64,000 nt of DNA from Catenovulum sp. SX2. Its GTDB lineage: Bacteria > Pseudomonadota > Gammaproteobacteria > Enterobacterales > Alteromonadaceae. The stretch is taken from positions 2,123,989 to 2,187,988 of the forward strand of contig NZ_CP182493.1 of the NCBI RefSeq assembly GCF_052056295.1. Direction: 5' to 3'. The notes beneath the pieces are model-generated. The model saw only the letters and a program-made list of their open reading frames with translations, had not been told where the DNA came from and did not search any database. Below are positions 26,467 to 62,344 of this stretch, one piece after another (position 1 is the first letter of the stretch; each line of letters begins with the position of its first letter). A program made the position numbers and the translations under genes.

Positions 26467-27108
26467 CTAGTTTCTAAGCTCTTGCATATCCGCAATTAAC
26501 TCAGCTAATTTTTTAAACTGACGACCATAAATAATATTGAGATCTAATCTGTATAAAGCATCCGAAAAACGGGCAACAACAAACAGAATAACGGCAATGA
26601 CCAACAGCAAATAGTACGGGACGCCGAAAAGCAGCAATTCAGTTGGCCATGCAATCATTATCAAGCCAATTATTTCACCACCGGCATCGCTTACCAAAGC
26701 TTGTGCCGCCATACCAATAAAGAGTAATGGATAGAAAAATTTGTAATAGCGCGCATACACAGCAATGGAGTGTTGCAGCCAAGCATTAAAACTCATGATG
26801 TAGTCATAACTGCTCTGCCCTTTAGATAATTGATGTGACTTTCGCAGCTCTTTTTTAGCAATAATCACCAGTGGCACAAGCAGAAGGCAAATATACAAAC
26901 CCAAAAAAGGCGCACCAATCAAACTAAACATCACAAGTGCTACTAAACTACCGCCGATTATGGCTTTGATATTCAGCGCAAACATCTGCTGCAGTTTATC
27001 AACTATGTTCTGTGATTTGCGGTTATACAAGTCATTAATTTTTGGAGCTATTAGTTGAGTTTCTTTTACAAAACCGTCTTTCCACATTTGTTCAATTGAT
27101 TTACTCAT
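26467..27108 (-). CDS. Hypothetical membrane protein immediately downstream of the ECF sigma factor (possible anti-sigma factor)
   Basis: Cytoplasmic N-terminus of about 45 aa, then at least three TM helices. A 15-bp gap to the sigma factor gene. The anti-sigma role is inferred only from position. Confidence 0.35.
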   Translation of the reverse strand: MSKSIEQMWKDGFVKETQLIAPKINDLYNRKSQNIVDKLQQMFALNIKAIIGGSLVALVMFSLIGAPFLGLYICLLLVPLVIIAKKELRKSHQLSKGQSSYDYIMSFNAWLQHSIAVYARYYKFFYPLLFIGMAAQALVSDAGGEIIGLIMIAWPTELLLFGVPYYLLLVIAVILFVVARFSDALYRLDLNIIYGRQFKKLAELIADMQELRN

Positions 27109-27123
27109 TATCCCACCCTCTAG

Positions 27124-27612
27124 TTAATCTGCTTGATTAATAAACTTGGTTAATCTGCTTTTAATTCGCGTAATGCGCACACCTATGTTGTTGCTATTGC
27201 TGCCAATAATGTCAGCAATTTCTTCATAGGTTTTCTCTTCCAAATACAGCAAAATTACCGCTCTATCGGTTTCGGAAAGATGTTTAATCGCGTTGTACAA
27301 CAAGTTAATTTCGTCATTGGCAAAGGCTTTGCTGTCGTCGATAACCTCATCAGGCAAAGAGTCAGAAACAATATGTTTATCGCCGTTTTTACTTTGTTTG
27401 AGATAAGTTAAACAGACATTAAGTGATATACGGTAAATCCAGGTAGACCACTGACATTGCTGATTAAAATTGTCTTTGCTGCGCCAAATTTGCAGGCAAA
27501 CTTCTTGGTAATAATCTTCAAAATCTGCTTGGCTATTGGTATAAGCTCGACAGATTTTGATGATAATGCCCGCGTGCGGCAGAATGTATTGCAGATAAAA
27601 GTCACTACCCAT
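27124..27612 (-). CDS. ECF-subfamily RNA polymerase sigma-70 factor
   Basis: Region 2 (FEDYYQEVCLQIWR...WIYRISLN) and region 4 HTH (DRAVILLYLEEKTYEEIADIIG.S.NNIGVRITRIKSRL). Confidence 0.8.
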   Translation of the reverse strand: MGSDFYLQYILPHAGIIIKICRAYTNSQADFEDYYQEVCLQIWRSKDNFNQQCQWSTWIYRISLNVCLTYLKQSKNGDKHIVSDSLPDEVIDDSKAFANDEINLLYNAIKHLSETDRAVILLYLEEKTYEEIADIIGSNSNNIGVRITRIKSRLTKFINQAD

Positions 27613-27745
27613 AAAAAAGTAATATCCTAAATTATGTTATGACTGGTTAGTGGTTGGACGGTTGAGTTTATTACAGGCTAGTTTAAATTTTTTGATCTAG
27701 CCTGAAATAAATCGATTTTTTGATGGTTTTGCAATTGTGTGGAAG

Positions 27746-29167
27746 TTATAAATTAACTGAAGGTGTGGGCAATTCGTAAGCTGCACTGTTCATATTCGCG
27801 CTGCACACAGGTAATTTATCCCCTTCAGGTAAATCGAATTGAGTTACACTGACAACCGCATCTGCTTTTTTCAAAACAATTAGAGTTGAAGTTAAATTTG
27901 GCTGATAAACAATAGGATCTGTACACTCAAATCCTGGGTTTAGGATAGTAGTGATAATTCCGCCACCATTGGTATTTTTGGCTTTATCAATTTCAGTTAA
28001 ACGCGCCTCAAACATAAAATCAAACACCAGCTTATCTTTGTCCACTACAACAGATTGTTGGTGATAATCATCAACAAAAGTCAGGTTATCCCCAGTCACT
28101 CTATTGCTATCACCGAATCCAAAACCATCTTGGTATAAACCCTGAGTGATTGCAAAATACATATCTGGATTTTCAGTTGCTTTGCGGTTGTATGGTGGCA
28201 ATTCAATACTGGTGGCCTGTAAAATATTATTAGCATCAAACGCGCTTAACCACTGTAGTAAATTATCTTGAACCGAAGCAAATGCGGTTGGCTTAGCTTG
28301 TAACACCAATAATTGCCAATCAGTAGTCGATGGCAATAAATTCACCATTTTCACGTTGTCAGTTTGATATAACTGCAAATCACCCGAAAGCTCAATGCTA
28401 TCCATTTTCCAATAATTACCATCACTATTTTGGAAAATACGTTCAGATAAAACTTGCGGCGATAAAGCAGCTAAATCCAATTCGATTTTCAAACTATTCA
28501 ACCAATACAAACGTGTAATTGCTGTGGTTGACAGCCAAGTATCAAAACCCAACAAGGTTGTAGAATTAACGCTTGCTAGTTGTTGCGCAGCAGCATCATT
28601 GTCATTTGAGAAATCAACTAGCTCAATATCAGTAATAGCTTCTACCGCATTGTTTTTAAAACTGGTTAAAAACGGATAATCTGTTTGTAACGCCAGCCAG
28701 TTTTGAGTGGTAATGTTTAAATATGAACTCTGTTCAAACTGGGTGAAATACTCAGTAAGATAAGGCATATAACCAGCTAATTCAGTATTAGCCAGCAAAG
28801 GCGATTGCCAGTACAGGTCTTGCTCTTGCGCGCTAACAGACAAAAATTGCAATTGCTTTAACCGACCCCAATTTGAATAATAATTATTCTCTGCCAGCGG
28901 CTGATTGGCGACAAAGTTTTGCACAAAAGCCGTATTGACGGCTTGGTTAAATTGCTCGAGTTCATCAGCAGAAATGGTTTTGGCAGATAGTTGTGTTTCA
29001 GTTTCAGCTTCAACATTATCCATAATCGTTTCTGAAGTGTTTTTGCTATCATGCGCAGTTGCTTTTGAAACATCTGCAGATGTTTGTGCATCATCTGGCG
29101 ATTTTGCCGAATTACAGCCAATTAAGGCAACAAATGCGCCTAAGATTAAAGAATTGCGTAAAAACAT
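27746..29167 (-). CDS. Hypothetical lipoprotein, 473 aa
   Basis: Lipoprotein signal (LILGAFVALIGCNSA). No recognisable domain. Confidence 0.45.
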   Translation of the reverse strand: MFLRNSLILGAFVALIGCNSAKSPDDAQTSADVSKATAHDSKNTSETIMDNVEAETETQLSAKTISADELEQFNQAVNTAFVQNFVANQPLAENNYYSNWGRLKQLQFLSVSAQEQDLYWQSPLLANTELAGYMPYLTEYFTQFEQSSYLNITTQNWLALQTDYPFLTSFKNNAVEAITDIELVDFSNDNDAAAQQLASVNSTTLLGFDTWLSTTAITRLYWLNSLKIELDLAALSPQVLSERIFQNSDGNYWKMDSIELSGDLQLYQTDNVKMVNLLPSTTDWQLLVLQAKPTAFASVQDNLLQWLSAFDANNILQATSIELPPYNRKATENPDMYFAITQGLYQDGFGFGDSNRVTGDNLTFVDDYHQQSVVVDKDKLVFDFMFEARLTEIDKAKNTNGGGIITTILNPGFECTDPIVYQPNLTSTLIVLKKADAVVSVTQFDLPEGDKLPVCSANMNSAAYELPTPSVNL

Positions 29168-29245: not shown

Positions 29246-30856
29246 TTAGTTATTTAAACTTTGCCAATTCAAACCATATTTAGCCAAATATTTCTGTAGC
29301 CGTGTTGAATCGTTTACCGCTGATTTTTTAGTACGACTCACATCAAATAGTGCTCTGCCAGCAGCTGCCATATTCTTATGCTGCAAACAAATGCCCAAAA
29401 CGAAGTTTAGCTGATGCAACTCAAACTGATCCAGTTCAGCTAGCTGCTGTGGAGAAAGATATCTATCCAACGTCTGAAGCGCATTTTGATTGTCGCTAGG
29501 TTGCCAGCAAGACTCTAACCTAGTTATTTCACTCTTGATATCGTCAACCGATATTCTCGAACTATCTGCCAGTGTACACAACCGGGTAATGGCCGAACTT
29601 AAATCTCTAAAATTGCCAGACCATACTGCTTGCTCTGACACGGCAAAAGATTCAAACATGAGTCTAGCCTCCTTATTAAATTGGATGCGCTGACCTGTTT
29701 TGCTTTCATACAATCCAAGTTCGTAATCAATATTTGCAGATATGTCTTCTTTTCGATCTTTTAAAGCTGGTAGCTTATATGTCCATAAATTGATTCTAGC
29801 CAATAAATCTTCACGAAAACTGCCTTTTCGCACTTCCGCTTGTAAATTTTTATTGGTGCCCGCAATCAGTTGAAAATCACTGGTGACCATTTTATCGCTA
29901 CCAACTGGATGAAAACTTTTATTCTCGATAGCGTGTAACAACATAGCTTGTTCTTCGAGGCCGAGCTCAGCAATTTCATCTAAAAACAACATGCCTTTGT
30001 TCGCGGTTAGCAAATAGCCGTTGCGTTCTTTTTGCGCTCCGGTAAAAGCACCTTTGGTATGGCCAAACAATGCTGCCATAGCATTTTCACCTTTTAGCGT
30101 TGCACAGTTCACCGAAACGAACTCGCCCGGCAACATTGCACGTTTTTTCTTCAACTGAAATATACGAGATGCTAGCTGGCTTTTACCTGAACCTGTAGGC
30201 CCAGTTAGCAACATAGGATCGCGTGAGCGAACCGCTACTTTTTCAATTTGACTAATCAGTTGATTAAAGGCTTGGTTATTGGTTTGAATTCCACCTTTTA
30301 AAAACGCATTACCTTCTAAATGCTCTTTATCAAAACGCGTGGCTAATTGGTCATATTTAGATAGGTCGAGATCAATAATTTGCACTTTCCCCTGCGCTTT
30401 ATTTTTATTGTTTTTATCAGGGGACGTTTGAATTAATCGACCTGGGAAATGGCCACTTTCGGTCAGTAGAAAACTACAAATTTGAACTACGTGTGTACCT
30501 GTGGTTATGTGAAACAAGTAGTCGTTGTTTTCTGCATCAAACTGCTGTTTATGGCACCAGTCATATAATTTGGCATACACCTCCTCAAAGTCCCATGGGT
30601 CATTAAAATTCACATTATGCAACTCAACTTGAGTTTCAGGAGAAATGCTCTCAATGTCGGCAGCCACATTATTCGCCAAACGTGAACTATGGTTGTCATG
30701 CAACATATACAATTGATCTATCACCAAATCTTCTTGGCTACACAAGCTCACATTCGGACGCCATTTATCCCATCTATCAACTCGTTTACCAACATAATCT
30801 AGCTGAGTACCAATTAAACTAACCGCAATCGTTTTTTTCAAAACACACATATCCAA
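29246..30856 (-). CDS. rtcR: Sigma-54-dependent transcriptional activator RtcR (N-terminal CARF-like sensor domain, AAA+ sigma-54 interaction domain, C-terminal HTH)
   Basis: Collinear with E. coli RtcR over its full length (..VSLIGTQLDYVGKRVDRWDKWRPNVSLCSQEDLVIDQL vs ..FGFVGTVLDYAGRGSQRWSKWRPTLCLCQQESLVIDRL; Walker A LLTGPTGSGKS; GAFTGA; FLDEIAEL; C-terminal AAAGRALFDVSRTKKSAVNDSTRLQKYLAKYGL). Confidence 0.93.
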   Translation of the reverse strand: MDMCVLKKTIAVSLIGTQLDYVGKRVDRWDKWRPNVSLCSQEDLVIDQLYMLHDNHSSRLANNVAADIESISPETQVELHNVNFNDPWDFEEVYAKLYDWCHKQQFDAENNDYLFHITTGTHVVQICSFLLTESGHFPGRLIQTSPDKNNKNKAQGKVQIIDLDLSKYDQLATRFDKEHLEGNAFLKGGIQTNNQAFNQLISQIEKVAVRSRDPMLLTGPTGSGKSQLASRIFQLKKKRAMLPGEFVSVNCATLKGENAMAALFGHTKGAFTGAQKERNGYLLTANKGMLFLDEIAELGLEEQAMLLHAIENKSFHPVGSDKMVTSDFQLIAGTNKNLQAEVRKGSFREDLLARINLWTYKLPALKDRKEDISANIDYELGLYESKTGQRIQFNKEARLMFESFAVSEQAVWSGNFRDLSSAITRLCTLADSSRISVDDIKSEITRLESCWQPSDNQNALQTLDRYLSPQQLAELDQFELHQLNFVLGICLQHKNMAAAGRALFDVSRTKKSAVNDSTRLQKYLAKYGLNWQSLNN

Positions 30857-30993
30857 ATAGATAAAAACATATCTATATAACTACAAAAATAAAAAAGGTC
30901 AATTACCCCATGAGTTAACTCCAGGTCCCCAAAACAACTTTAAAATAATAAAAATCAATCACTTGTGATAATTCATTAAATTTAATTTTAGTT

Positions 30994-31008
30994 TGGCACA
31001 TGACTTGA
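30994..31008 (+). promoter_or_regulatory. Candidate sigma-54 promoter TGGCAC-N5-TTGA (imperfect -12 element) in the rtcR/rtc-operon divergent region
   Basis: Correct -24 GG to -12 spacing; -12 reads GA instead of GC. Located about 100 nt upstream of the first tRNA-like element. Confidence 0.3.
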
Positions 31009-31107
31009 TAACTAATACTTGTCTGGTTAAACGGTTGTGATTCAAAAAATCACTCTGGTGCGCTGAACTGTGTGAATGCGTATACCTAACCAAACATCCA
31101 AATACAT

Positions 31108-31180
31108 ATTTAAGTAGCTCAGCGGATAGAGCAGCGGTTTTCACCGCTGGTCGAAGGTTCAAATCCTTCCTTAAATACCA
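31108..31180 (+). ncRNA. tRNA-like RNA element 1 with a shortened anticodon loop
   Basis: The sequence folds as a cloverleaf. It has a 7-bp acceptor stem (ATTTAAG/CTTAAAT) followed by A-CCA encoded in the DNA, a D-arm (GCTC..GG..GAGC), a T-arm (GAAGG-TTCAAAT-CCTTC) and a 5-nt variable loop. The anticodon stem GCGGT/ACCGC closes only a 4-nt loop, so it cannot be a decoding tRNA. Confidence 0.65.
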
Positions 31181-31252
31181 AATTGGTAGCTCAAACTGGT
31201 AGAGCATCGAATGTAACTTCGAGTGTTGTGGGTTCAAATCCCACCCAAAAAA
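31181..31252 (+). ncRNA. tRNA-like RNA element 2, more degenerate
   Basis: D-arm (GCTC-AAACTGGTA-GAGC) and T-arm (GTGGG-TTCAAAT-CCCAC) are canonical. The anticodon arm TCGAA-TGTAAC-TTCGA has a 6-nt loop, the acceptor stem is only 4 bp followed by an A-run, and there is no CCA. Confidence 0.5.
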
Positions 31253-31304
31253 TGTAAATAAATAAAGTTAGCAAGCGTTTTTACCAATGGTTGTTAAACG
31301 CAAT

Positions 31305-31319
31305 TGGCAAATAAATAGC
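31305..31319 (+). promoter_or_regulatory. Candidate sigma-54 promoter TGGCAA-N5-TAGC (GG and GC with canonical spacing), 105 bp upstream of the SPFH gene
   Basis: Sequence aatTGGCAaataaaTaGCc read directly. It would drive SPFH-rtcB-rtcA-NTase. RtcR-dependent operons are sigma-54 transcribed in E. coli and Salmonella. Confidence 0.4.
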
Positions 31320-31423
31320 CGCAGGCGGGATGCCCCCAGCTATAAAAAACCATGCGCCTTTAGCAACAAAGTAATTAACCCTTGCTAGCACTTTGCGAAA
31401 GCAAGTGAGAAAAGGATAAAACC

Positions 31424-32578
31424 ATGATTAGAAAAACAATACATGTAGCAGAAAACCAACGTGTTTTAGTATTTAAAGATGAAAAATTAGCGCAAGTTTT
31501 ACCAGCGGGTAAACACACTATTTGGCACTTTAGACAACATTTAAACTGTGTAACCTTCGATATAAACGACTTATATTTTTCTGAGAAAAATGCTGAGCGT
31601 TTGTATCGAGACAACCCATGTTTACAGCAACACATTGCTTACTGGAAATTAACCAGCGATCAGGTCGGATTATTATACGTAGATGACCTACTCCAAGGCA
31701 TAGTCGCGCCAAGTGAACATCTATTTATATGGAAAGATGCTGGTGACATTCGCCTAGAAAGATGCTCAATTGATGACGAGCTTGCTGTGGATGAAAAGTT
31801 GATGTGCTTGATAAATCGTGCTGGCGCTAACTCAGCAAACCGACTTATTCGCAGCAAGAGTACAGTGGCAATTCAGCCTATTGCAGATTTATCCGTGGAT
31901 AAACAACACATAGGTTTGCTGTATATCAATGGCAAATTCAAACAAAAATTAGCGCCAGGCCAACATGCTTTTTGGCAATTTAATCAAACATTAGAGCTAA
32001 AATCCTTTGATTGCAGAACACAAATGTTAGAAATATCCGGTCAGGAAATTTTAAGTAAAGACAGAGTAAGTTTAAGAATTAATTTAAGCGCAAATATCAA
32101 AATTCAAGATGCAGAATTAGTCGCCAATAGTATAGATAAAGCAAACGACTATGTTTATAAAACTTTGCAGTTGGCGCTGAGAGAAGCGGTTGGCACTAAG
32201 TCATTGGACGATATTTTATTAGACAAACTCTATATCAACAGCACGGTTAAGGAGTTAGTCACTGAGCAATTAGCAGAAGTAGGTATCACGCTATTAAATG
32301 TTGGAGTAAAAGACATCATTTTGCCCGGTGAAATGAAAGCCATACTCAACCAAGTTGTTGAAGCACAAAAAGCCGCCGAAGCTAACGTTATCAAAAGACG
32401 TGAAGAAACGTCTGCAACCAGAAGCTTGCACAATACAGCCAAGGTGATGGAAAACAATCCAACGCTTTTGCGTTTAAAAGAATTAGAAGCATTAGAAAAA
32501 ATCGCCGACCGTATTGATAACTTAACAGTGTACGGTGGTTTAGAAGGATTAATGAACGGCGTAGTAAAAATAGCTTAA
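31424..32578 (+). CDS. SPFH/band-7 (slipin-like) domain protein, soluble, with three N-terminal ~40-aa internal repeats
   Basis: The C-terminal half matches the SPFH fold (LAEVGITLLNVGVKDIILPGEMKAILNQVVEAQKAAEANVIKRREETSATRSLHNTAKVM...LLRLKELEALEKIA). There is no TM segment. N-terminal repeats have the shape ..LPAGKHTIWHF.., ..APSEHLFIWKD.., ..APGQHAFWQF.. Confidence 0.75.
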   Translation: MIRKTIHVAENQRVLVFKDEKLAQVLPAGKHTIWHFRQHLNCVTFDINDLYFSEKNAERLYRDNPCLQQHIAYWKLTSDQVGLLYVDDLLQGIVAPSEHLFIWKDAGDIRLERCSIDDELAVDEKLMCLINRAGANSANRLIRSKSTVAIQPIADLSVDKQHIGLLYINGKFKQKLAPGQHAFWQFNQTLELKSFDCRTQMLEISGQEILSKDRVSLRINLSANIKIQDAELVANSIDKANDYVYKTLQLALREAVGTKSLDDILLDKLYINSTVKELVTEQLAEVGITLLNVGVKDIILPGEMKAILNQVVEAQKAAEANVIKRREETSATRSLHNTAKVMENNPTLLRLKELEALEKIADRIDNLTVYGGLEGLMNGVVKIA

Positions 32579-32606: not shown

Positions 32607-33836
32607 ATGAGTACAAATTACAACCTTATACAAAATAAAGGCAGCGCGACAATAAAAGCTTGGACTAAAGGTGTACCTTTTGAAGAACAAGCACAACAAC
32701 AATTACAAAATATCGCAACTATGCCGTTAATTCATTCACATATCGCTGTTATGCCTGATGTGCACATGGGCAAAGGCGCAACAATTGGCAGTGTTATTCC
32801 ATCGGTCAATGCAGTTATTCCTGCCGCAGTAGGGGTAGATATTGGTTGTGGCATGGTCGCAACTAAAACCACCTTAACCGCCAGCCAGTTACCAGATAAC
32901 TTGTCTGGTATACGGCAGGCTTTTGAAGCAGCCATTCCGCATGGTAGAACAGGAGGACGCCGCCGAGGCTCCCGAGACAAAGGCGCGTGGCATAACATAC
33001 CTGATATTGTTGCAACTGAATGGCAAAAACTCGAAAAACGTTTTGAACATATTTGTGAAAAACACCCAGCTATAAAAAATAGCAACCATGTAAACCACTT
33101 AGGCACTATGGGTACAGGCAATCACTTTTTAGAATTGTGTTTAGACGAAAATAACGCAGTTTGGATAATGTTGCATTCAGGCAGCCGTGGCGTCGGCAAC
33201 AGAATTGGCACCTATTTTATTGAGTTGGCGAAAAAAGAAATGCAACGACATCAAATTAATTTACCAGATGTTGATTTAGCTTACCTTGAAGAAGGTAGTG
33301 AATATTTTGCTGACTATGTTGAAGCGGTTGAATGGGCACAAGATTTTGCTGCGAAGAATCGCGAAATTATGATGATTAATGCTATTGCGGCTTTGCGAAA
33401 ACAAATACCTGTTGCATTTTCAACAGCAGACTTAGCTGTAAATTGCCACCACAACTATATATCGCGTGAGCACCATTTCGGCAAAGACTGCTTTGTTACC
33501 CGAAAAGGCGCAGTTCGAGCACAAAAAGGTGAAATGGGCATAATCCCGGGCAGCATGGGTGCACGCTCTTACATAGTGAGAGGGCTTGGCAACCCAGAAA
33601 GTTTTAATAGCTGTAGCCATGGAGCAGGCCGGGTGATGTCGCGAACTCAAGCTAAAAAAGTCTACAACATTCAAGACCAAATTGATGCAACTCAAGGGGT
33701 TGAGTGCCGTAAAGATGCAGCGGTAATTGATGAGATCCCACATGCATACAAAGACATAGACAAAGTAATGCAAGCACAAAAAGACCTTGTTGAAGTGGTT
33801 TACACCTTAAAACAAGTTGTTTGTGTAAAAGGTTAA
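32607..33836 (+). CDS. rtcB: RNA-splicing ligase RtcB (3'-phosphate/5'-OH RNA ligase)
   Basis: Near-collinear with E. coli RtcB (HIAVMPDVHMGKGATIGSVIP, PAAVGVDIGCGM, GTMGTGNHFLE.C, HSGSRG.GN, NCHHNY, SCSHGAGR, C-terminal LKQVVCVKG). Confidence 0.95.
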   Translation: MSTNYNLIQNKGSATIKAWTKGVPFEEQAQQQLQNIATMPLIHSHIAVMPDVHMGKGATIGSVIPSVNAVIPAAVGVDIGCGMVATKTTLTASQLPDNLSGIRQAFEAAIPHGRTGGRRRGSRDKGAWHNIPDIVATEWQKLEKRFEHICEKHPAIKNSNHVNHLGTMGTGNHFLELCLDENNAVWIMLHSGSRGVGNRIGTYFIELAKKEMQRHQINLPDVDLAYLEEGSEYFADYVEAVEWAQDFAAKNREIMMINAIAALRKQIPVAFSTADLAVNCHHNYISREHHFGKDCFVTRKGAVRAQKGEMGIIPGSMGARSYIVRGLGNPESFNSCSHGAGRVMSRTQAKKVYNIQDQIDATQGVECRKDAAVIDEIPHAYKDIDKVMQAQKDLVEVVYTLKQVVCVKG

Positions 33837-33851
33837 ACATAAGGAATTTTA

Positions 33852-34886
33852 ATGTCATTTATACAAATTGATGGCGCACAAGGAGAAGGTGGCGGACAAG
33901 TTCTACGAACAGCTTTAACTCTGTCCGCAATCACCAAGCAGCCATTTGAGTTATGCAACATACGCGCAAATAGACAAAAACCTGGGTTGTTGCGTCAGCA
34001 CCTAACTTCAGTATTAGCAGCTCAACAGGTATGCAATGCAGAGGTTGAAGGCGCCGAACTAGGTTCACAAAAAATTGTGTTTACCCCTAATACAATTACC
34101 GCAGGCGAATTTGAATTTTCGATAGGAACAGCTGGTAGTACTGTGTTGGTTTGCCAAACCATACTGCCAATTTTAGCACTGGCAGAAACAGGCTCAGTTA
34201 TCAAATTTGAAGGAGGCACACACAATGGAATGTCGCCTTCATTGTGTTTTTTACAGCAGAGTTATTTGCCACTATTGCGCAAAATGGGTGTACAAAGTGC
34301 CGTAACAGAGGGCAAATATGGCTTTTACCCTGCTGGCGGCGGCAGCTGGAAACTTGAAATCACGCCAGCCAAGAAATGGCAACAACTGCATCTGAATGAA
34401 CAGGCAAACTTGCCGCAACAACACTTAGAGAGTGGCCAAATTAAGGTTTTATTGAGCAGTTTGCCAAATAACATAGCGGAACGAGAAATTACCACTGCAA
34501 AAAAGTATTTAAATTGGCCTGACGCGCAAGCACAAATAAAGCAAGTAAGAGCCAACGGCCCTGGCAATAGTTTTCAAATTTCACTACTGAGTAAAAACCA
34601 CAATAGTGTTTTTGAAGTGATTGGTGAGTTAAGGGTTTCAGCAGAGCAAGTGGCTAAACGCTGCGCAGGGCGGGTCAAAAAGTTTATTCAGGCAAATGCT
34701 GCAGTAGAAGAGCATTTGGCTGACCAACTTTTATTGCCTATGGCTCTAGCTGGCGGTGGTTGCTTTACAACTACAAAACCGAGCTTGCATACACAAACAA
34801 ATATTAAAGTCATTCAACAGTTCGTCAATATTGATATACAAGTGAATCAAATAGACGAGTTATTGTGGGAAATTACCCTTAGGTGA
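33852..34886 (+). CDS. rtcA: RNA 3'-terminal phosphate cyclase RtcA
   Basis: IDGAQGEGGGQVLRTALTLSAITKQPFEL.NIRANRQKPGLLRQHLT matches the RtcA N-terminus. YLADQLLLPMALAGGG is the C-terminal signature. Confidence 0.93.
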   Translation: MSFIQIDGAQGEGGGQVLRTALTLSAITKQPFELCNIRANRQKPGLLRQHLTSVLAAQQVCNAEVEGAELGSQKIVFTPNTITAGEFEFSIGTAGSTVLVCQTILPILALAETGSVIKFEGGTHNGMSPSLCFLQQSYLPLLRKMGVQSAVTEGKYGFYPAGGGSWKLEITPAKKWQQLHLNEQANLPQQHLESGQIKVLLSSLPNNIAEREITTAKKYLNWPDAQAQIKQVRANGPGNSFQISLLSKNHNSVFEVIGELRVSAEQVAKRCAGRVKKFIQANAAVEEHLADQLLLPMALAGGGCFTTTKPSLHTQTNIKVIQQFVNIDIQVNQIDELLWEITLR

Positions 34887-34924: not shown

Positions 34925-35719
34925 ATGCATCAGATACCAGCAGAAGTTAGAGAGGAAATACTGAGCAGAATAAAAGCCGCTGAAGCAGAACATCAGGTCA
35001 AGGTTTTATACGCGGTCGAGTCCGGTAGCCGAGCTTGGGGGTTTGCTAGCCCAAACAGTGATTATGATGTCAGGTTTATCTACGTACATCCAAAAGATTG
35101 GTATTTAGCCGTCAATCTTGAAGATAAACGTAATGTAATCGAATACCCAATAGTCGATGAAATAGATATAAATGGTTGGGACATACGTAAAGCACTCAAG
35201 CTTTATTGGAAATCTAACCCGGCTTTTATCGAATGGTTGCAATCACCCATAGTGTACCTTGAGCAAGGTGATTTTGCACAACAGGCTCGCAGTTTAATGC
35301 CACAAACAGTGTCATCAAATAAAGGTATTCACCATTATTTGCACATGGCCAAAAACAACTTTCGAGAATATTTGAAAAAAGACACTGTACCGCTTAAAAA
35401 GTATTTTTACGTGTTACGTCCTTTATTGGCAATTGCCTGGTTAGAGAAATACAACACCCCAGCACCAATAGAGTTTGATGTTTTACGTAAACTTGTTGCC
35501 GACAACAAAGCATTAGACAGTGCGATAACTGAGCTGCTAGAGCGTACAAAAGTCAGCTTAGAGAAGGAATACGCACCAGCTGTGCCTGTAATAAATCAAT
35601 TTATTCAAACTGAGCTGGAGCGCCTAAAAACGGCCAACTTAACTGACAAAGCAACCGATAGAGAAGTTAGTTTCGACCAACTAAACACGCTGTTTAAACA
35701 TGTGATAGATCACGAGTAA
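34925..35719 (+). CDS. Pol-beta-superfamily nucleotidyltransferase (PF10127/COG3541-like predicted nucleotidyltransferase)
   Basis: NTase motif GS-x9-13-DxD (VESGSRAWGFASPNSDYDVRFIY). 264 aa. Immediately follows rtcA with a 38-bp gap on the same strand. Confidence 0.7.
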   Translation: MHQIPAEVREEILSRIKAAEAEHQVKVLYAVESGSRAWGFASPNSDYDVRFIYVHPKDWYLAVNLEDKRNVIEYPIVDEIDINGWDIRKALKLYWKSNPAFIEWLQSPIVYLEQGDFAQQARSLMPQTVSSNKGIHHYLHMAKNNFREYLKKDTVPLKKYFYVLRPLLAIAWLEKYNTPAPIEFDVLRKLVADNKALDSAITELLERTKVSLEKEYAPAVPVINQFIQTELERLKTANLTDKATDREVSFDQLNTLFKHVIDHE

Positions 35720-60112: not shown

Positions 60113-62344
60113 TTGAAGATACATGTTAAACACTCACCTAGTGAATTGGAATTTTTGATGGAAATTAAAGTAAATTATTTAGACAACTTACGCCTTGAAG
60201 CCAAATTTGACGATTTTACCGTCATTTCCGACCAACCAATTCGTTATAAAGGCGATGGCTCTGCGCCGGGTCCATTCGATTATTTTTTAGCATCATCAGC
60301 AATGTGTGCTGCTTACTTTGTTAAGGTGTATTGTTTAGCGCGTGATATTCCAACCGACAATATTCGTTTAGCGCACAACAATATTGTTGACCCAGAAAAC
60401 CGCTACAAGCAGCAGTTTAAAATTCAAATAGAACTTCCAGAAAGCATTTCAGAAAAAGATCGCATAGGTATTTTGCGCTCAATCGACCGCTGCACAGTAA
60501 AAAAAGTAGTGCAAACAGGCCCAGAATTTATTGTTGAAGCGGTGGAAAGTTTAGCGCAAGACGCTTCAGCCATGATAATGGTTGATACAGATGAAAATAA
60601 TCAAACCTTTATTGTTGGTAAAGATTTACCACTAGAAAAAACCATAGCCAATATGACTCAGCAACTGGCTGATTTAGGCATGAAAATTGAGGTTTCTTCA
60701 TGGCGTAATATAGTGCCAAATGTTTGGTCACTGCATATTCGTGATGCAGCGTCACCTATGTGTTTTACCAATGGTAAAGGCTCAAGCAAAGAAAGTGCAT
60801 TGTGTAGCGCATTAGGCGAGTTTATTGAACGCTTAAATTGTAATTTTTTCTACAATGATCAGTTTTTGGGTGAAGACATAGCCAATGCTGAGTTTGTGCA
60901 TTACCCTAATGAAAAATGGTTTGAGTTAACCGAAGACGACTCACTGCCAGCAGGCATGTTAGACGACTACTGTTTAGATATTTTTAATCCTGATGGTGAA
61001 CTGCAAGGTTCGCATTTAATCGACACCAACTCAGGTAATATTGAACGTGGTATTTGTTGTATTCCATACACACGCCACAGCGATGGTGAAACTGTTTATA
61101 TTCCATCAAACATTATTGAAAACCTGTTTTTAAGCAATGGCATGAGCGCGGGTAACAATATTTTTGAAGCGCAGGTTCAGTGTTTATCTGAAATATTTGA
61201 GCGCGCGGTAAAACGCCAAATTATCGAACAAGAGATTGTTTTACCAGACGTACCAAAAGAAGTACTCGCCAAATATCCAAGCATAGTTGCCGGTATTGAA
61301 GGCTTAGAGCAACAAGGTTTCCCAGTATTAGTGAAAGATGCATCTTTAGGTGGTCAATTCCCTGTAATGTGCGTCACCATAATGAACCCTAAAACCGGTG
61401 GCGTATTTGCCTCATTTGGTGCGCACCCAAGTTTTGAAGTGGCACTAGAGCGCAGCTTAACTGAGTTATTACAAGGCCGCAGTTTTGAAGGCTTAAATGA
61501 TATTCCAAAACCTACCTTTAACAGCATGGCGGTTTCTGAGCCGGAAAACTTTGTTGAACATTTTATCGACTCAACCGGGGTTATTTCGTGGCGCTTCTTT
61601 AGCAGCAAATCTGAATATGATTTTGTTGAGTGGGATTTCTCTGGCGACAATGAACAAGAGTGCGAAACCTTATTCGGTATTTTAGCCGATTTAGGTAAAG
61701 AAGCTTATGTGGCTAAGTTCGAACACCTTGGCGCAAGTGCTTGCCGCATCCTAGTGCCGGATTATTCAGAAGTGTACCCAGTTGAAGATTTAATTTGGGA
61801 CAATACCAACAAAGCGCTGCAATACCGCGAAGATATTTTAAATATCCACAAGCTGTCGGACGATCAGTTAGTTGATTTATATGAGCGCTTAGAAGACAGC
61901 CAGCTAGATAACTATATCGATATTATCACCCTGATTGGTATTGAGTTTGACGAAAACACAGTGTGGGGTCAGTTGACCATACTTGAGCTAAAAATTCTAA
62001 TTTGCCTTGCGGTTGGTGAGCTTGAACAAGCTATCGAGTTAGTTGGTGAGTTTTTACAATACAACGACAACACAGTTGAACGTACTTTATTTTACCAAGC
62101 GGTCAGCGCTGCTTTAGAAGTAACCTTAGATGAAGAACTAGAGTTAGATGATTTTATCTTTAACTTCAAGCGTATGTTTGGTGACGAAGTCATGGAAAAT
62201 GTAGTTGGCTCAATTAATGGCGAAGTTAAGTTTTATGGTTTAACTCCAACCAGTATGAAACTTGAAGGACTAGACAGACATCAACGTTTAATCGACAGTT
62301 ACAAAAAATTACACAACGCACGCAAAAAAGCGGCGGGGTTATAA
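60113..62344 (+). CDS. OsmC-domain / YcaO-domain fusion protein
   Basis: Residues about 20-150 are OsmC/Ohr-like (GDGSAPGPFDYFLASSAMCAAYFV). Residues about 170-743 are collinear with E. coli YcaO (LADLGMKIEVSSWRNIVPNVWSLHIRD, CFTNGKGSSKESALCSALGEFIERL, GICCIPYTR, MSAGN, GGQFPVMCV, FGAHP.FEVALERSLTELLQGR). Confidence 0.88.
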   Translation: MKIHVKHSPSELEFLMEIKVNYLDNLRLEAKFDDFTVISDQPIRYKGDGSAPGPFDYFLASSAMCAAYFVKVYCLARDIPTDNIRLAHNNIVDPENRYKQQFKIQIELPESISEKDRIGILRSIDRCTVKKVVQTGPEFIVEAVESLAQDASAMIMVDTDENNQTFIVGKDLPLEKTIANMTQQLADLGMKIEVSSWRNIVPNVWSLHIRDAASPMCFTNGKGSSKESALCSALGEFIERLNCNFFYNDQFLGEDIANAEFVHYPNEKWFELTEDDSLPAGMLDDYCLDIFNPDGELQGSHLIDTNSGNIERGICCIPYTRHSDGETVYIPSNIIENLFLSNGMSAGNNIFEAQVQCLSEIFERAVKRQIIEQEIVLPDVPKEVLAKYPSIVAGIEGLEQQGFPVLVKDASLGGQFPVMCVTIMNPKTGGVFASFGAHPSFEVALERSLTELLQGRSFEGLNDIPKPTFNSMAVSEPENFVEHFIDSTGVISWRFFSSKSEYDFVEWDFSGDNEQECETLFGILADLGKEAYVAKFEHLGASACRILVPDYSEVYPVEDLIWDNTNKALQYREDILNIHKLSDDQLVDLYERLEDSQLDNYIDIITLIGIEFDENTVWGQLTILELKILICLAVGELEQAIELVGEFLQYNDNTVERTLFYQAVSAALEVTLDEELELDDFIFNFKRMFGDEVMENVVGSINGEVKFYGLTPTSMKLEGLDRHQRLIDSYKKLHNARKKAAGL

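Follow-up and report, generated by a model that had tools for sequence, protein, structure and literature searches.

In Catenovulum sp. SX2, the leader of an operon for RNA repair contains two tandem tRNA-like modules that are, judged by comparison with related loci, shape-conserved, non-decoding tRNA mimics: all four stems and the elbow are kept, while the anticodon loop is free to vary. They were analysed in a window of 64,000 nucleotides (contig NZ_CP182493.1, positions 2,123,989 to 2,187,988 of the forward strand; coordinates below are those of the window), where they lie between the divergent rtcR gene and a Band-7(SPFH)-rtcB-rtcA-rlaP operon. We are highly confident, from their sequence and that of their relatives, that both belong to the class of predicted RNAs named b7a-tRNA and that neither decodes. 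We infer that they most likely serve RNA repair as non-decoding RNA partners of the ring-forming protein Band-7. The two modules are as follows.

31108..31180, plus strand: tRNA-like module 1 ('type B'), a full cloverleaf with 7-bp acceptor, A73, encoded CCA and a UUUC tetraloop on the anticodon stem.
31181..31253, plus strand: tRNA-like module 2 ('type C'), with canonical D-, anticodon- and T-arms, a 6-nt anticodon loop, a 4-bp acceptor and no CCA.

The acceptor of element 1 consists of seven Watson-Crick pairs (ATTTAAG/CTTAAAT) and is followed by the discriminator A31177 and by CCA at 31178-31180. The D-arm (GCTC-AGCGGATA-GAGC) carries an 8-nt, GG-containing D-loop, the variable loop is TGGTC (5 nt) and the T-arm reads GAAGG-TTCAAAT-CCTTC. 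The anticodon arm, GCGGT-TTTC-ACCGC, has 14 nt in place of the usual 17; ARAGORN reads it as a 4-bp stem with a 6-nt loop and reports a 'tRNA-???' with a 2-nt anticodon. Element 2 abuts element 1 without a spacer. Its acceptor (TTGG/CCAA) has only 4 bp, and its arms are GCTC-AAACTGGTA-GAGC (D), TCGAA-TGTAAC-TTCGA (anticodon, 6-nt loop) and GTGGG-TTCAAAT-CCCAC (T); ARAGORN did not call it. An earlier note, made from the letters of this DNA alone, had listed the cloverleaf parts of element 1, had described element 2 as having canonical D- and T-arms, a 4-bp acceptor and no CCA, and had counted anticodon loops of 4 and 6 nt; every one of these details is present in the sequence, the loops being UUUC and UGUAAC.

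Both elements exceed the 29-bit threshold of the Rfam tRNA model. Element 1 reaches 60.8 bits (E = 1.1e-10 in the 64-kb window) and element 2 reaches 41.0 bits (E = 3e-5), the latter matching model positions 4-67 only, because of its 4-bp acceptor, its 6-nt anticodon loop and its missing CCA. Although the general model thus matches both, their loops of 4 and 6 nt mark them as something other than decoding tRNAs, as the earlier note had argued. Against R1, a covariance model built from promoter-proximal module calls, element 2 scores 67.0 bits. The cloverleaf of element 2 is its own minimum-free-energy fold; that of element 1 lies 2.4 kcal/mol above its minimum, and the minimum-free-energy fold retains three of the four arms. 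The presence of two cloverleaves, far beyond chance, is confirmed.

Conservation was analysed in 80 loci from species-representative genomes (identified below as L001 and so on), fetched via an alignment of Band-7 homologues with 39-78% protein identity and drawn from Gamma- and Betaproteobacteria, Myxococcota, Eisenbacteria and Binatia. Modules were called by ARAGORN and by R1; since cmsearch missed abutting modules that overlap by 2-4 nt, counts merge the calls of ARAGORN and of the covariance model. A first covariation test used a structure-blind MAFFT alignment of 66 modules, most of them chosen by ARAGORN, which itself requires pairing. Here 92% of cells formed standard pairs, compared with 33-45% in slid controls, and 17 of 21 pairs had changed on both sides. 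The second test was blind to such selection, taking whole leaders picked by position only: 96.3% of cells were paired compared with 35-49% after sliding, 14 pairs were double-changed compared with at most 3, and both anticodon stems were found to co-vary. The comparison of orthologous intergenic regions thereby bears out the cloverleaf of the earlier note, its pairing being conserved in relatives with covariation.

The nucleotides of the tertiary interactions (U8, A14, G18, the T-loop GGTTC-A and C61) are invariant or nearly so, and the near-invariance of D- and T-loop nucleotides among orthologues agrees with the elbow retention that had been proposed. The anticodon region behaves differently. 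Orthologues with the same body carry GTA, AAT, GAT, GAA or ATT at the anticodon position, and loop lengths range from 3 to 13 nt, departing from 7 nt in 16 of the 57 elements covered by our regular-expression parser of the anticodon arm. A UUUC or UUCG tetraloop caps the anticodon stem in three lineages, namely Catenovulum sp. SX2, L007 and the betaproteobacterial L056. Orthologues in other genera thus keep the body and change both the 'anticodon' and the loop length, in keeping with the non-decoding reading of the earlier note. Because the L-shaped body is under selection and the anticodon loop is not, the RNA would be read by its shape and not through a codon.

The NCCA end is encoded in most gammaproteobacterial tRNA genes. 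Among the modules proximal to Band-7, CCA is encoded in 31 of 98, compared with 44 of 48 ordinary tRNAs of nearby arrays (described below). Element 1 combines a 7-bp acceptor with ACCA, and to that extent the CCA end noted earlier is real, but it has not been kept in the nearest orthologues, which read CTTAAAT-AC-AGG; element 2, with its 4 bp, has none.

At 66 of the 80 loci, the 520 nt upstream of Band-7 contain at least one tRNA-like module in the orientation of that gene. Two or three modules are present at 22 loci, and at 21 of these they abut (gaps of -4 to +5 nt). In Alteromonadales, three paralogous module types occur in the fixed order A-B-C and align column by column across genera. 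Element 1 of Catenovulum sp. SX2 is of type B, with orthologues at L001, L004, L006, L009, L010, L013 and L015, and element 2 is of type C, with orthologues at L001, L002, L004, L006, L008-L010, L012 and L015. Because abutting modules recur and the types keep their order across genera, the tandem layout is, on this comparison, an old, recurrent and conserved design and not a local duplication. The tandem arrangement that the earlier note had remarked on is therefore present, but it is not a peculiarity of this locus. In an Alteromonas metagenome-assembled genome (MAG; L008:1874-1930), a 57-nt insert between two modules contains an orphan T-arm, GGAGG-TTCGAAT-CCTCC, and looks like the remnant of a third module.

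Within 4 kb of Band-7, the 80 loci contain RtcB in 59 cases, RtcR in 47, RtcA in 34 and RlaP in 27. Where the gene order is RtcR-RtcB-RtcA-Band-7 (L032, L034, L036, L041, L042, L044, L046 and L051), the module stands directly before Band-7 and not at the promoter, and modules are also found at loci without RtcB or RtcR within 4 kb. From these arrangements, the RNA is seen to travel with Band-7, and not with RtcB or RtcR.

The modules of Catenovulum sp. SX2 do not stand alone in the leader. Whole leaders from ten genera were aligned and folded with RNAalifold (alignment A4), which recovered the arms of both modules together with two more conserved domains; these, and a small hairpin read directly from the sequence, are listed here.

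31020..31096, plus strand: 5' three-way-junction RNA domain, made up of an outer stem and two hairpins, one with a T-loop-like TTCnAAA loop and the other, GGUGCGC...GCGUAU, with invariant G-U pairs.
31267..31389, plus strand: long rod-like hairpin of ~44 bp with a conserved apical GC-nGGAn-GC hairpin.
31392..31405, plus strand: small GAAA-capped hairpin just before the Shine-Dalgarno sequence AAGGA (31412-31416), a weakly evidenced feature.

The inferred transcription start roughly coincides with the beginning of the 5' domain, whose end is base-paired. Folded as a single sequence it has z = -2.84, and none of 200 shuffles folds as well. Its covariance model, R3, matched 37 loci, including distant Gamma- and Betaproteobacteria, mostly 0-20 nt upstream of the first tRNA-like module and otherwise 26-88 nt upstream; at L041 the unit that it heads is located after rtcA. 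In this domain 93.8% of cells are paired compared with 29-51% in slid controls, and 18 of 22 pairs have changed on both sides. At L004 (3590-3681) and L006 (3586-3677), the second hairpin of the domain contains a 14-nt insertion that lengthens the helix, and the insertion itself co-varies (CTTAC..GTAAG versus CTTGC..GCAAG), which fits an RNA structure and not a signal at the DNA level.

The long hairpin folds with z = -3.27, again with no shuffle as good among 200, and its model, R2, matched 29 loci, in every case downstream of the last module and before the Band-7 ATG. Here 88.8% of cells are paired (29-41% in slid controls) and 39 of 44 pairs have changed on both sides. In more distant loci the corresponding segment is longer and still unusually structured, with z < -2 in 88% of 65 loci, a figure based on mononucleotide shuffles and hence somewhat optimistic. 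The earlier statement that a long helix is absent holds inside 31108-31252, but this hairpin follows immediately downstream, and the three-way junction lies immediately upstream. Neither the 5' domain nor the long hairpin matched an Rfam family. The position of the small GAAA-capped hairpin is conserved and its sequence appears to co-vary. The whole leader (31019-31423) folds with z = -4.65. From the comparative folding, the modules are thus embedded in a structured leader of ~400 nt, which runs from the 5' three-way junction through module 1, module 2 and the long hairpin to the Band-7 start. Relatives with this unit include Pseudoalteromonas, Alteromonas mediterranea and Shewanella algae. 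In the Pseudoalteromonas luteoviolacea group (L016-L018, L021-L023, L025, L029; proteins P0002, P0017, P0107), the recognised module follows the 5' RNA domain after 44-60 nt, a spacing that suggests an additional, degenerate module.

The genes and the promoter motif around the leader are the following.

29246..30856, minus strand: rtcR (CARF-type RtcR domain and sigma-54 activator; Pfam RtcR 2.5e-81, Sigma54_activat 1.8e-48), divergent from the operon.
30994..31008, plus strand: sigma-54-type motif TGGCAC-N5-TTGA, also found in 29 related loci.
31424..32578, plus strand: gene of a Band-7/SPFH ('slipin') protein of 384 aa, with N-terminal beta-repeats, SPFH core and long helix.
32607..33836, plus strand: rtcB RNA ligase (Pfam RtcB 7.9e-128), directly downstream of Band-7.
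33852..34886, plus strand: rtcA RNA 3'-phosphate cyclase (Pfam RTC 4e-76).
34925..35719, plus strand: rlaP (PF10127; Pfam RlaP 5.9e-89), an RNA-ligase-associated Pol-beta nucleotidyltransferase.

The modules lie ~90 nt downstream of the RtcR/sigma-54 promoter, and module 2 ends 171 nt before the Band-7 open reading frame (ORF) on the same strand. The distance from the sigma-54 motif to the first tRNA-like module is near-constant in close relatives (105-114 nt). The position of the motif places the putative transcription start at about 31019-31021. Neither a sigma-70 promoter nor an intrinsic terminator was predicted from the sigma-54 motif to the Band-7 start, and together with the conserved motif this makes it likely that the tRNA-like elements are co-transcribed with the operon. 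ARAGORN found no further tRNA genes in the window. A minus-strand ORF of 92 aa (30959-31237) that overlaps the elements was dismissed, since what is conserved there is the pairing of stems, with loops that vary freely, and this is not a codon pattern.

The Band-7 protein is 100% identical to the 'slipin family protein' of Catenovulum sp. SX2. Residues ~180-375 are stomatin-like, and solved homologues form rings or cages of 16-26 subunits. The N-terminal 170 aa had no Pfam match even at E = 10 and only weak HflK/C matches in NCBIfam, and no membrane anchor region recognisable by Pfam was found in the protein. An AlphaFold model based on a 91-sequence alignment reached a predicted local distance difference test score (pLDDT) of 84.3; a model from a 10-sequence alignment (pLDDT 48) was discarded. 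The model places three five-stranded beta units, the SPFH core and a 60-residue helix in that order. In Foldseek searches, stomatin, HflK and prohibitin align over ~215-270 columns, and only major vault protein aligns over the full length (417-472 columns, query TM score 0.41-0.45). This suggests a vault-like layout of the modelled protein. The order of beta-repeat, SPFH domain and helix recalls the vault particle, in which major vault protein assembles a ribonucleoprotein with vault RNA, and the SPFH core with its long helix is shared with the SPFH cages of stomatin, HflK/C and QmcA. However, the Band-7 protein is much smaller (384 aa), the fold match of its N-terminal repeats is weak, vault RNA is not tRNA-like, and assembly and RNA binding of Band-7 are predictions here. 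No RNA-binding fold was identified in the model. The Band-7 proteins of the Pseudoalteromonas luteoviolacea group named above have ~540 aa, with an extra N-terminal extension of ~150 residues that may be a further beta-repeat copy. No Band-7 homologue was found in a phage collection.

An RNA class with these properties had already been predicted. In the second-hand description on which we draw, b7a-tRNA is a predicted non-coding RNA that strongly resembles tRNA and has the genes of RtcB and of a Band-7 protein as neighbours; its function is presumed to be analogous to that of YrlA and redundant with it, and the RNA is described there as lacking experimental validation (Wang et al., 10.1101/312249). 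The Catenovulum sp. SX2 locus agrees with that account in tRNA likeness, Band-7 adjacency and the presence of RtcB, and nothing in the description contradicts membership, so that the elements appear to be new members of a class known as a prediction. A full-text literature search for 'b7a-tRNA' found no other papers. The rtc locus of Pseudomonas aeruginosa (strain PA14) contains an SPFH gene, PaFlo8, and the 2026 report of it mentions no RNA (PMC13086221).

The modules also resemble the tRNA-like part of the bacterial Y RNA YrlA, a kinship which the earlier note had recognised. Both occur in RtcR-controlled RNA-repair operons (rsr-yrlBA-rtcBA for YrlA), both have a D-loop/T-loop elbow whose arms are almost alike in sequence (GUAGCUCA..GGUAGAGC, GGUUCRAnUCC), both lack a decoding anticodon loop, and both are paired with a ring-shaped protein, which in the case of Band-7 is a predicted partner. 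However, YrlA is circularly permuted (T-arm, closed acceptor hairpin, D-arm) and set in a long, Ro60-binding stem of its 5' and 3' ends, whereas each module here follows the normal tRNA order and has an anticodon hairpin to itself; the long helix stands apart as a hairpin downstream, and the putative partner is Band-7 and not Ro60. The tRNA-like domain of tmRNA is a further mimic that keeps acceptor and T-arm without a decoding anticodon loop, and tmRNA is given as the most frequent bacterial RtcB target in a secondary account (PMC11090510, citing Kotta-Loizou 2022). It differs in being aminoacylated and in having no anticodon stem, whereas the modules here keep a co-varying anticodon stem and mostly lack CCA.

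Taken as a whole, the sequence evidence is best explained by b7a-tRNA modules in a structured leader that work with Band-7 in RtcB repair loci, an account we regard as probable. How they would do so is a more tentative matter, and the mechanism that follows, in which the RNA is a cofactor in a Band-7 ribonucleoprotein, is one we consider plausible rather than probable. RtcR responds to damaged tRNA fragments (PMC7790460); once activated by RNA damage, it would cause the leader to be made together with Band-7, RtcB, RtcA and RlaP, the last of which extends the 5' half of anticodon-cleaved tRNA mimics by one or two nucleotides (PMC12776372). The modules might either stay in the leader or be cut out, module 1 by an RNase P cut at 31107/31108 and with a double-strand nuclease cutting at the long hairpin. 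The tRNA-shaped modules would bind the ring- or cage-forming Band-7 protein, and the particle would thereby gain a tRNA-like handle that recruits or positions tRNA-handling repair enzymes, by analogy with the role of YrlA for Ro60. Other candidate roles, suggested in the earlier note, are those of substrate or decoy for RNase P, the CCA-adding enzyme, RtcB or the NTase. Both the RNA as a stable species and its contact with Band-7 are predictions from sequence.

Some observations weigh against a non-decoding cofactor. Most distant modules retain a canonical 7-nt CU-NNN-AA loop, and there may be some constraint on loop geometry in those lineages. No module was found within 520 nt at 14 of the 80 loci, although at 8 of these there is a tRNA-like call farther upstream, at 525-960 nt. 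A purely cis-acting leader would also be consistent with the linkage to Band-7. Such a leader would provide an RNase P/RNase III processing signal, a 5' stabiliser whose paired end blocks decay, or translational control of Band-7, with no function for the free RNA, and we consider it unlikely as the whole explanation. It would account for a unit that invariably shares the strand of Band-7, lies 150-520 nt upstream of it and moves with it, for the lack of a predicted terminator before the Band-7 ORF, for a 5' domain that starts with a base-paired end at the inferred transcription start and for the small hairpin that adjoins the Shine-Dalgarno sequence. RNase P recognises the acceptor (7 bp as a rule), T-arm and elbow and does not need the anticodon loop, and the conservation pattern fits these needs. 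However, the D-arm sequence and the anticodon stem, which RNase P does not need, are conserved or co-varying; the acceptors of module 2 and of most type C orthologues are too weak for RNase P; and abutting or overlapping modules are not all cleanly releasable. A cis-acting leader and a ribonucleoprotein cofactor are in any case compatible and not mutually exclusive. Quite improbable, in our view, is a decoy or sentinel for tRNA-targeting ribotoxins, which would soak up anticodon nucleases or be cleaved to 2',3'-cyclic-phosphate fragments that activate the CARF domain of RtcR in a positive feedback. The activation of RtcR by damaged tRNA fragments and the proposal of YrlA as a competitive inhibitor of an anticodon nuclease (PMC7790460) would favour it, as would the action of RlaP on anticodon-loop-cleaved tRNA mimics (PMC12776372) and the canonical CU-NNN-AA loop geometry, with varied triplets, of many distant loci. 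Yet the usual nuclease target is the anticodon loop, which is cut to 4 and 6 nt in these modules, is a tetraloop in some others and shows no constraint on its sequence. The element, moreover, goes with Band-7 and not with RtcR and is present at loci without RtcR within 4 kb, and a decoy made only after induction would act late.

Membership of the YrlA family, with the T-arm of element 1 and the D-arm of element 2 forming a permuted module that binds a Ro60 orthologue, is effectively refuted by the sequence comparison and keeps only a very slight probability. The Rfam YrlA model (RF02553) does match 31123-31239, using exactly these two arms, at 34.9 bits (local E = 7.9e-6), and it matches every module junction of seven other tandem loci at 31-40 bits; a junction hairpin UACCA-AAU-UGGUA is possible. 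All of these scores are far under the gathering score of 69, the outer stems contain non-canonical pairs, and a gap of 6 nt separates T-arm 1 from the junction hairpin. Each module scores far higher as a cloverleaf of ordinary order, and it is this cloverleaf that co-varies. A search of the operon, its flanks and all ORFs of 380-750 aa in the window gave no TROVE/Ro60 gene, and YrlA reached threshold at none of 15 Band-7 loci without a proximal module. The family was rejected, and the elements appear related to, yet distinct from, the YrlA module, as the earlier note had anticipated. The recurrent junction match probably reflects shared arm sequences. A systematic match at junctions is also what the Sim & Wolin 2018 model predicts, as cited in the source used for b7a-tRNA (10.1101/312249): YrlA would derive from a dimeric tRNA transcript, the first tRNA's T-arm and the second one's D-arm giving the YrlA module. 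Spacer-less tandem modules have exactly the layout of this second-hand model, although the match at each junction may reflect merely the shared arms. The view that the elements are ordinary or decaying tRNA genes, or tRNA ends duplicated by the integration of mobile elements, has a negligible probability. Their Rfam tRNA scores are above threshold and element 1 has a perfect acceptor with ACCA, but the anticodon loops have 4 and 6 nt, orthologues differ in their anticodons, and across genera the same two paralogous types recur with compensatory changes, their order and position being kept. The elements occupy a fixed place in an operon leader and not an island boundary, and an origin as an integration site or att duplication was rejected on their fixed position and orientation.

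The reading of the modules as non-decoding partners of Band-7 bears on a widespread system, since bacterial RtcB/RtcA repair operons are common and little is understood of their cofactors. The prediction of b7a-tRNA dates back a decade, and the searchable literature shows no experimental test of it. Together with its 80 relatives, this locus supplies exact module boundaries and the nucleotides that are, and are not, under selection. To the prediction we add a quantitative account of non-decoding selection, recurrent spacer-less tandems, two flanking RNA domains and a partner of vault-like layout. Some of these points may already be in the 2016 class description, the class being compared here via a second-hand description (10.1101/312249). 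The two extra conserved RNA domains suggest that the functional unit extends beyond one tRNA mimic. Binding of the RNA to a cage-forming SPFH protein, if it occurs, would tie SPFH proteins, usually seen as membrane scaffolds, to RNA biology, and would strengthen the evolutionary link that has been proposed among tRNAs, Y RNAs and particles of the vault type. A bolder version, which we think rather doubtful, would make the entire ~400-nt leader a single RNA subunit, with several domains, in a soluble, vault-like cage of Band-7. This would be a bacterial ribonucleoprotein comparable to the vault and to the Ro60-Y RNA particle, and in RNA repair it would offer tRNA-shaped handles to RtcB, RlaP and other tRNA enzymes; the spacer-less dimer could then be a living 'dimeric tRNA' intermediate ancestral to YrlA.

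Among the surveyed loci, L027, L030, L061, L063 and L080 (Aliiglaciecola, Ideonella, Rhodoferax, Erwinia), several of which have RtcR and RtcB, showed neither a tRNA-like module nor an Rfam match upstream of Band-7 (for L063, in 270 nt of upstream sequence only); the RNA may have been lost, replaced or have diverged too far. At 12 or more Band-7 loci, mostly of betaproteobacterial MAGs, an array of ordinary-looking tRNAs on the same strand lies directly upstream of the unit of 5' domain, tRNA-like module and Band-7 (those named are L048, L068, L069, L070, L073, L076, L079, L033, L052, L054 and L045; for example L076:2017-3357). The larger arrays hold 3-12 genes, and at some loci the array is placed between rtcB and Band-7. 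The array tRNAs have 7-nt loops. His(GTG) occurs most often (10 loci), with Lys, Asn and Phe next, and these species include several classic anticodon-nuclease targets. Such arrays may be a 'spare tRNA' supply beside the repair module.

Elsewhere in the window, an ECF-type sigma factor gene (27124-27612, Sigma70_r2/r4_2) is located beside rtcR in a minus-strand region (26467-29167), where it is flanked by two ORFs without a Pfam match, of 213 aa (26467-27108) and 473 aa (27746-29167). A YcaO cyclodehydratase gene on the plus strand (60113-62344) encodes an N-terminal OsmC-like domain, an unusual fusion.

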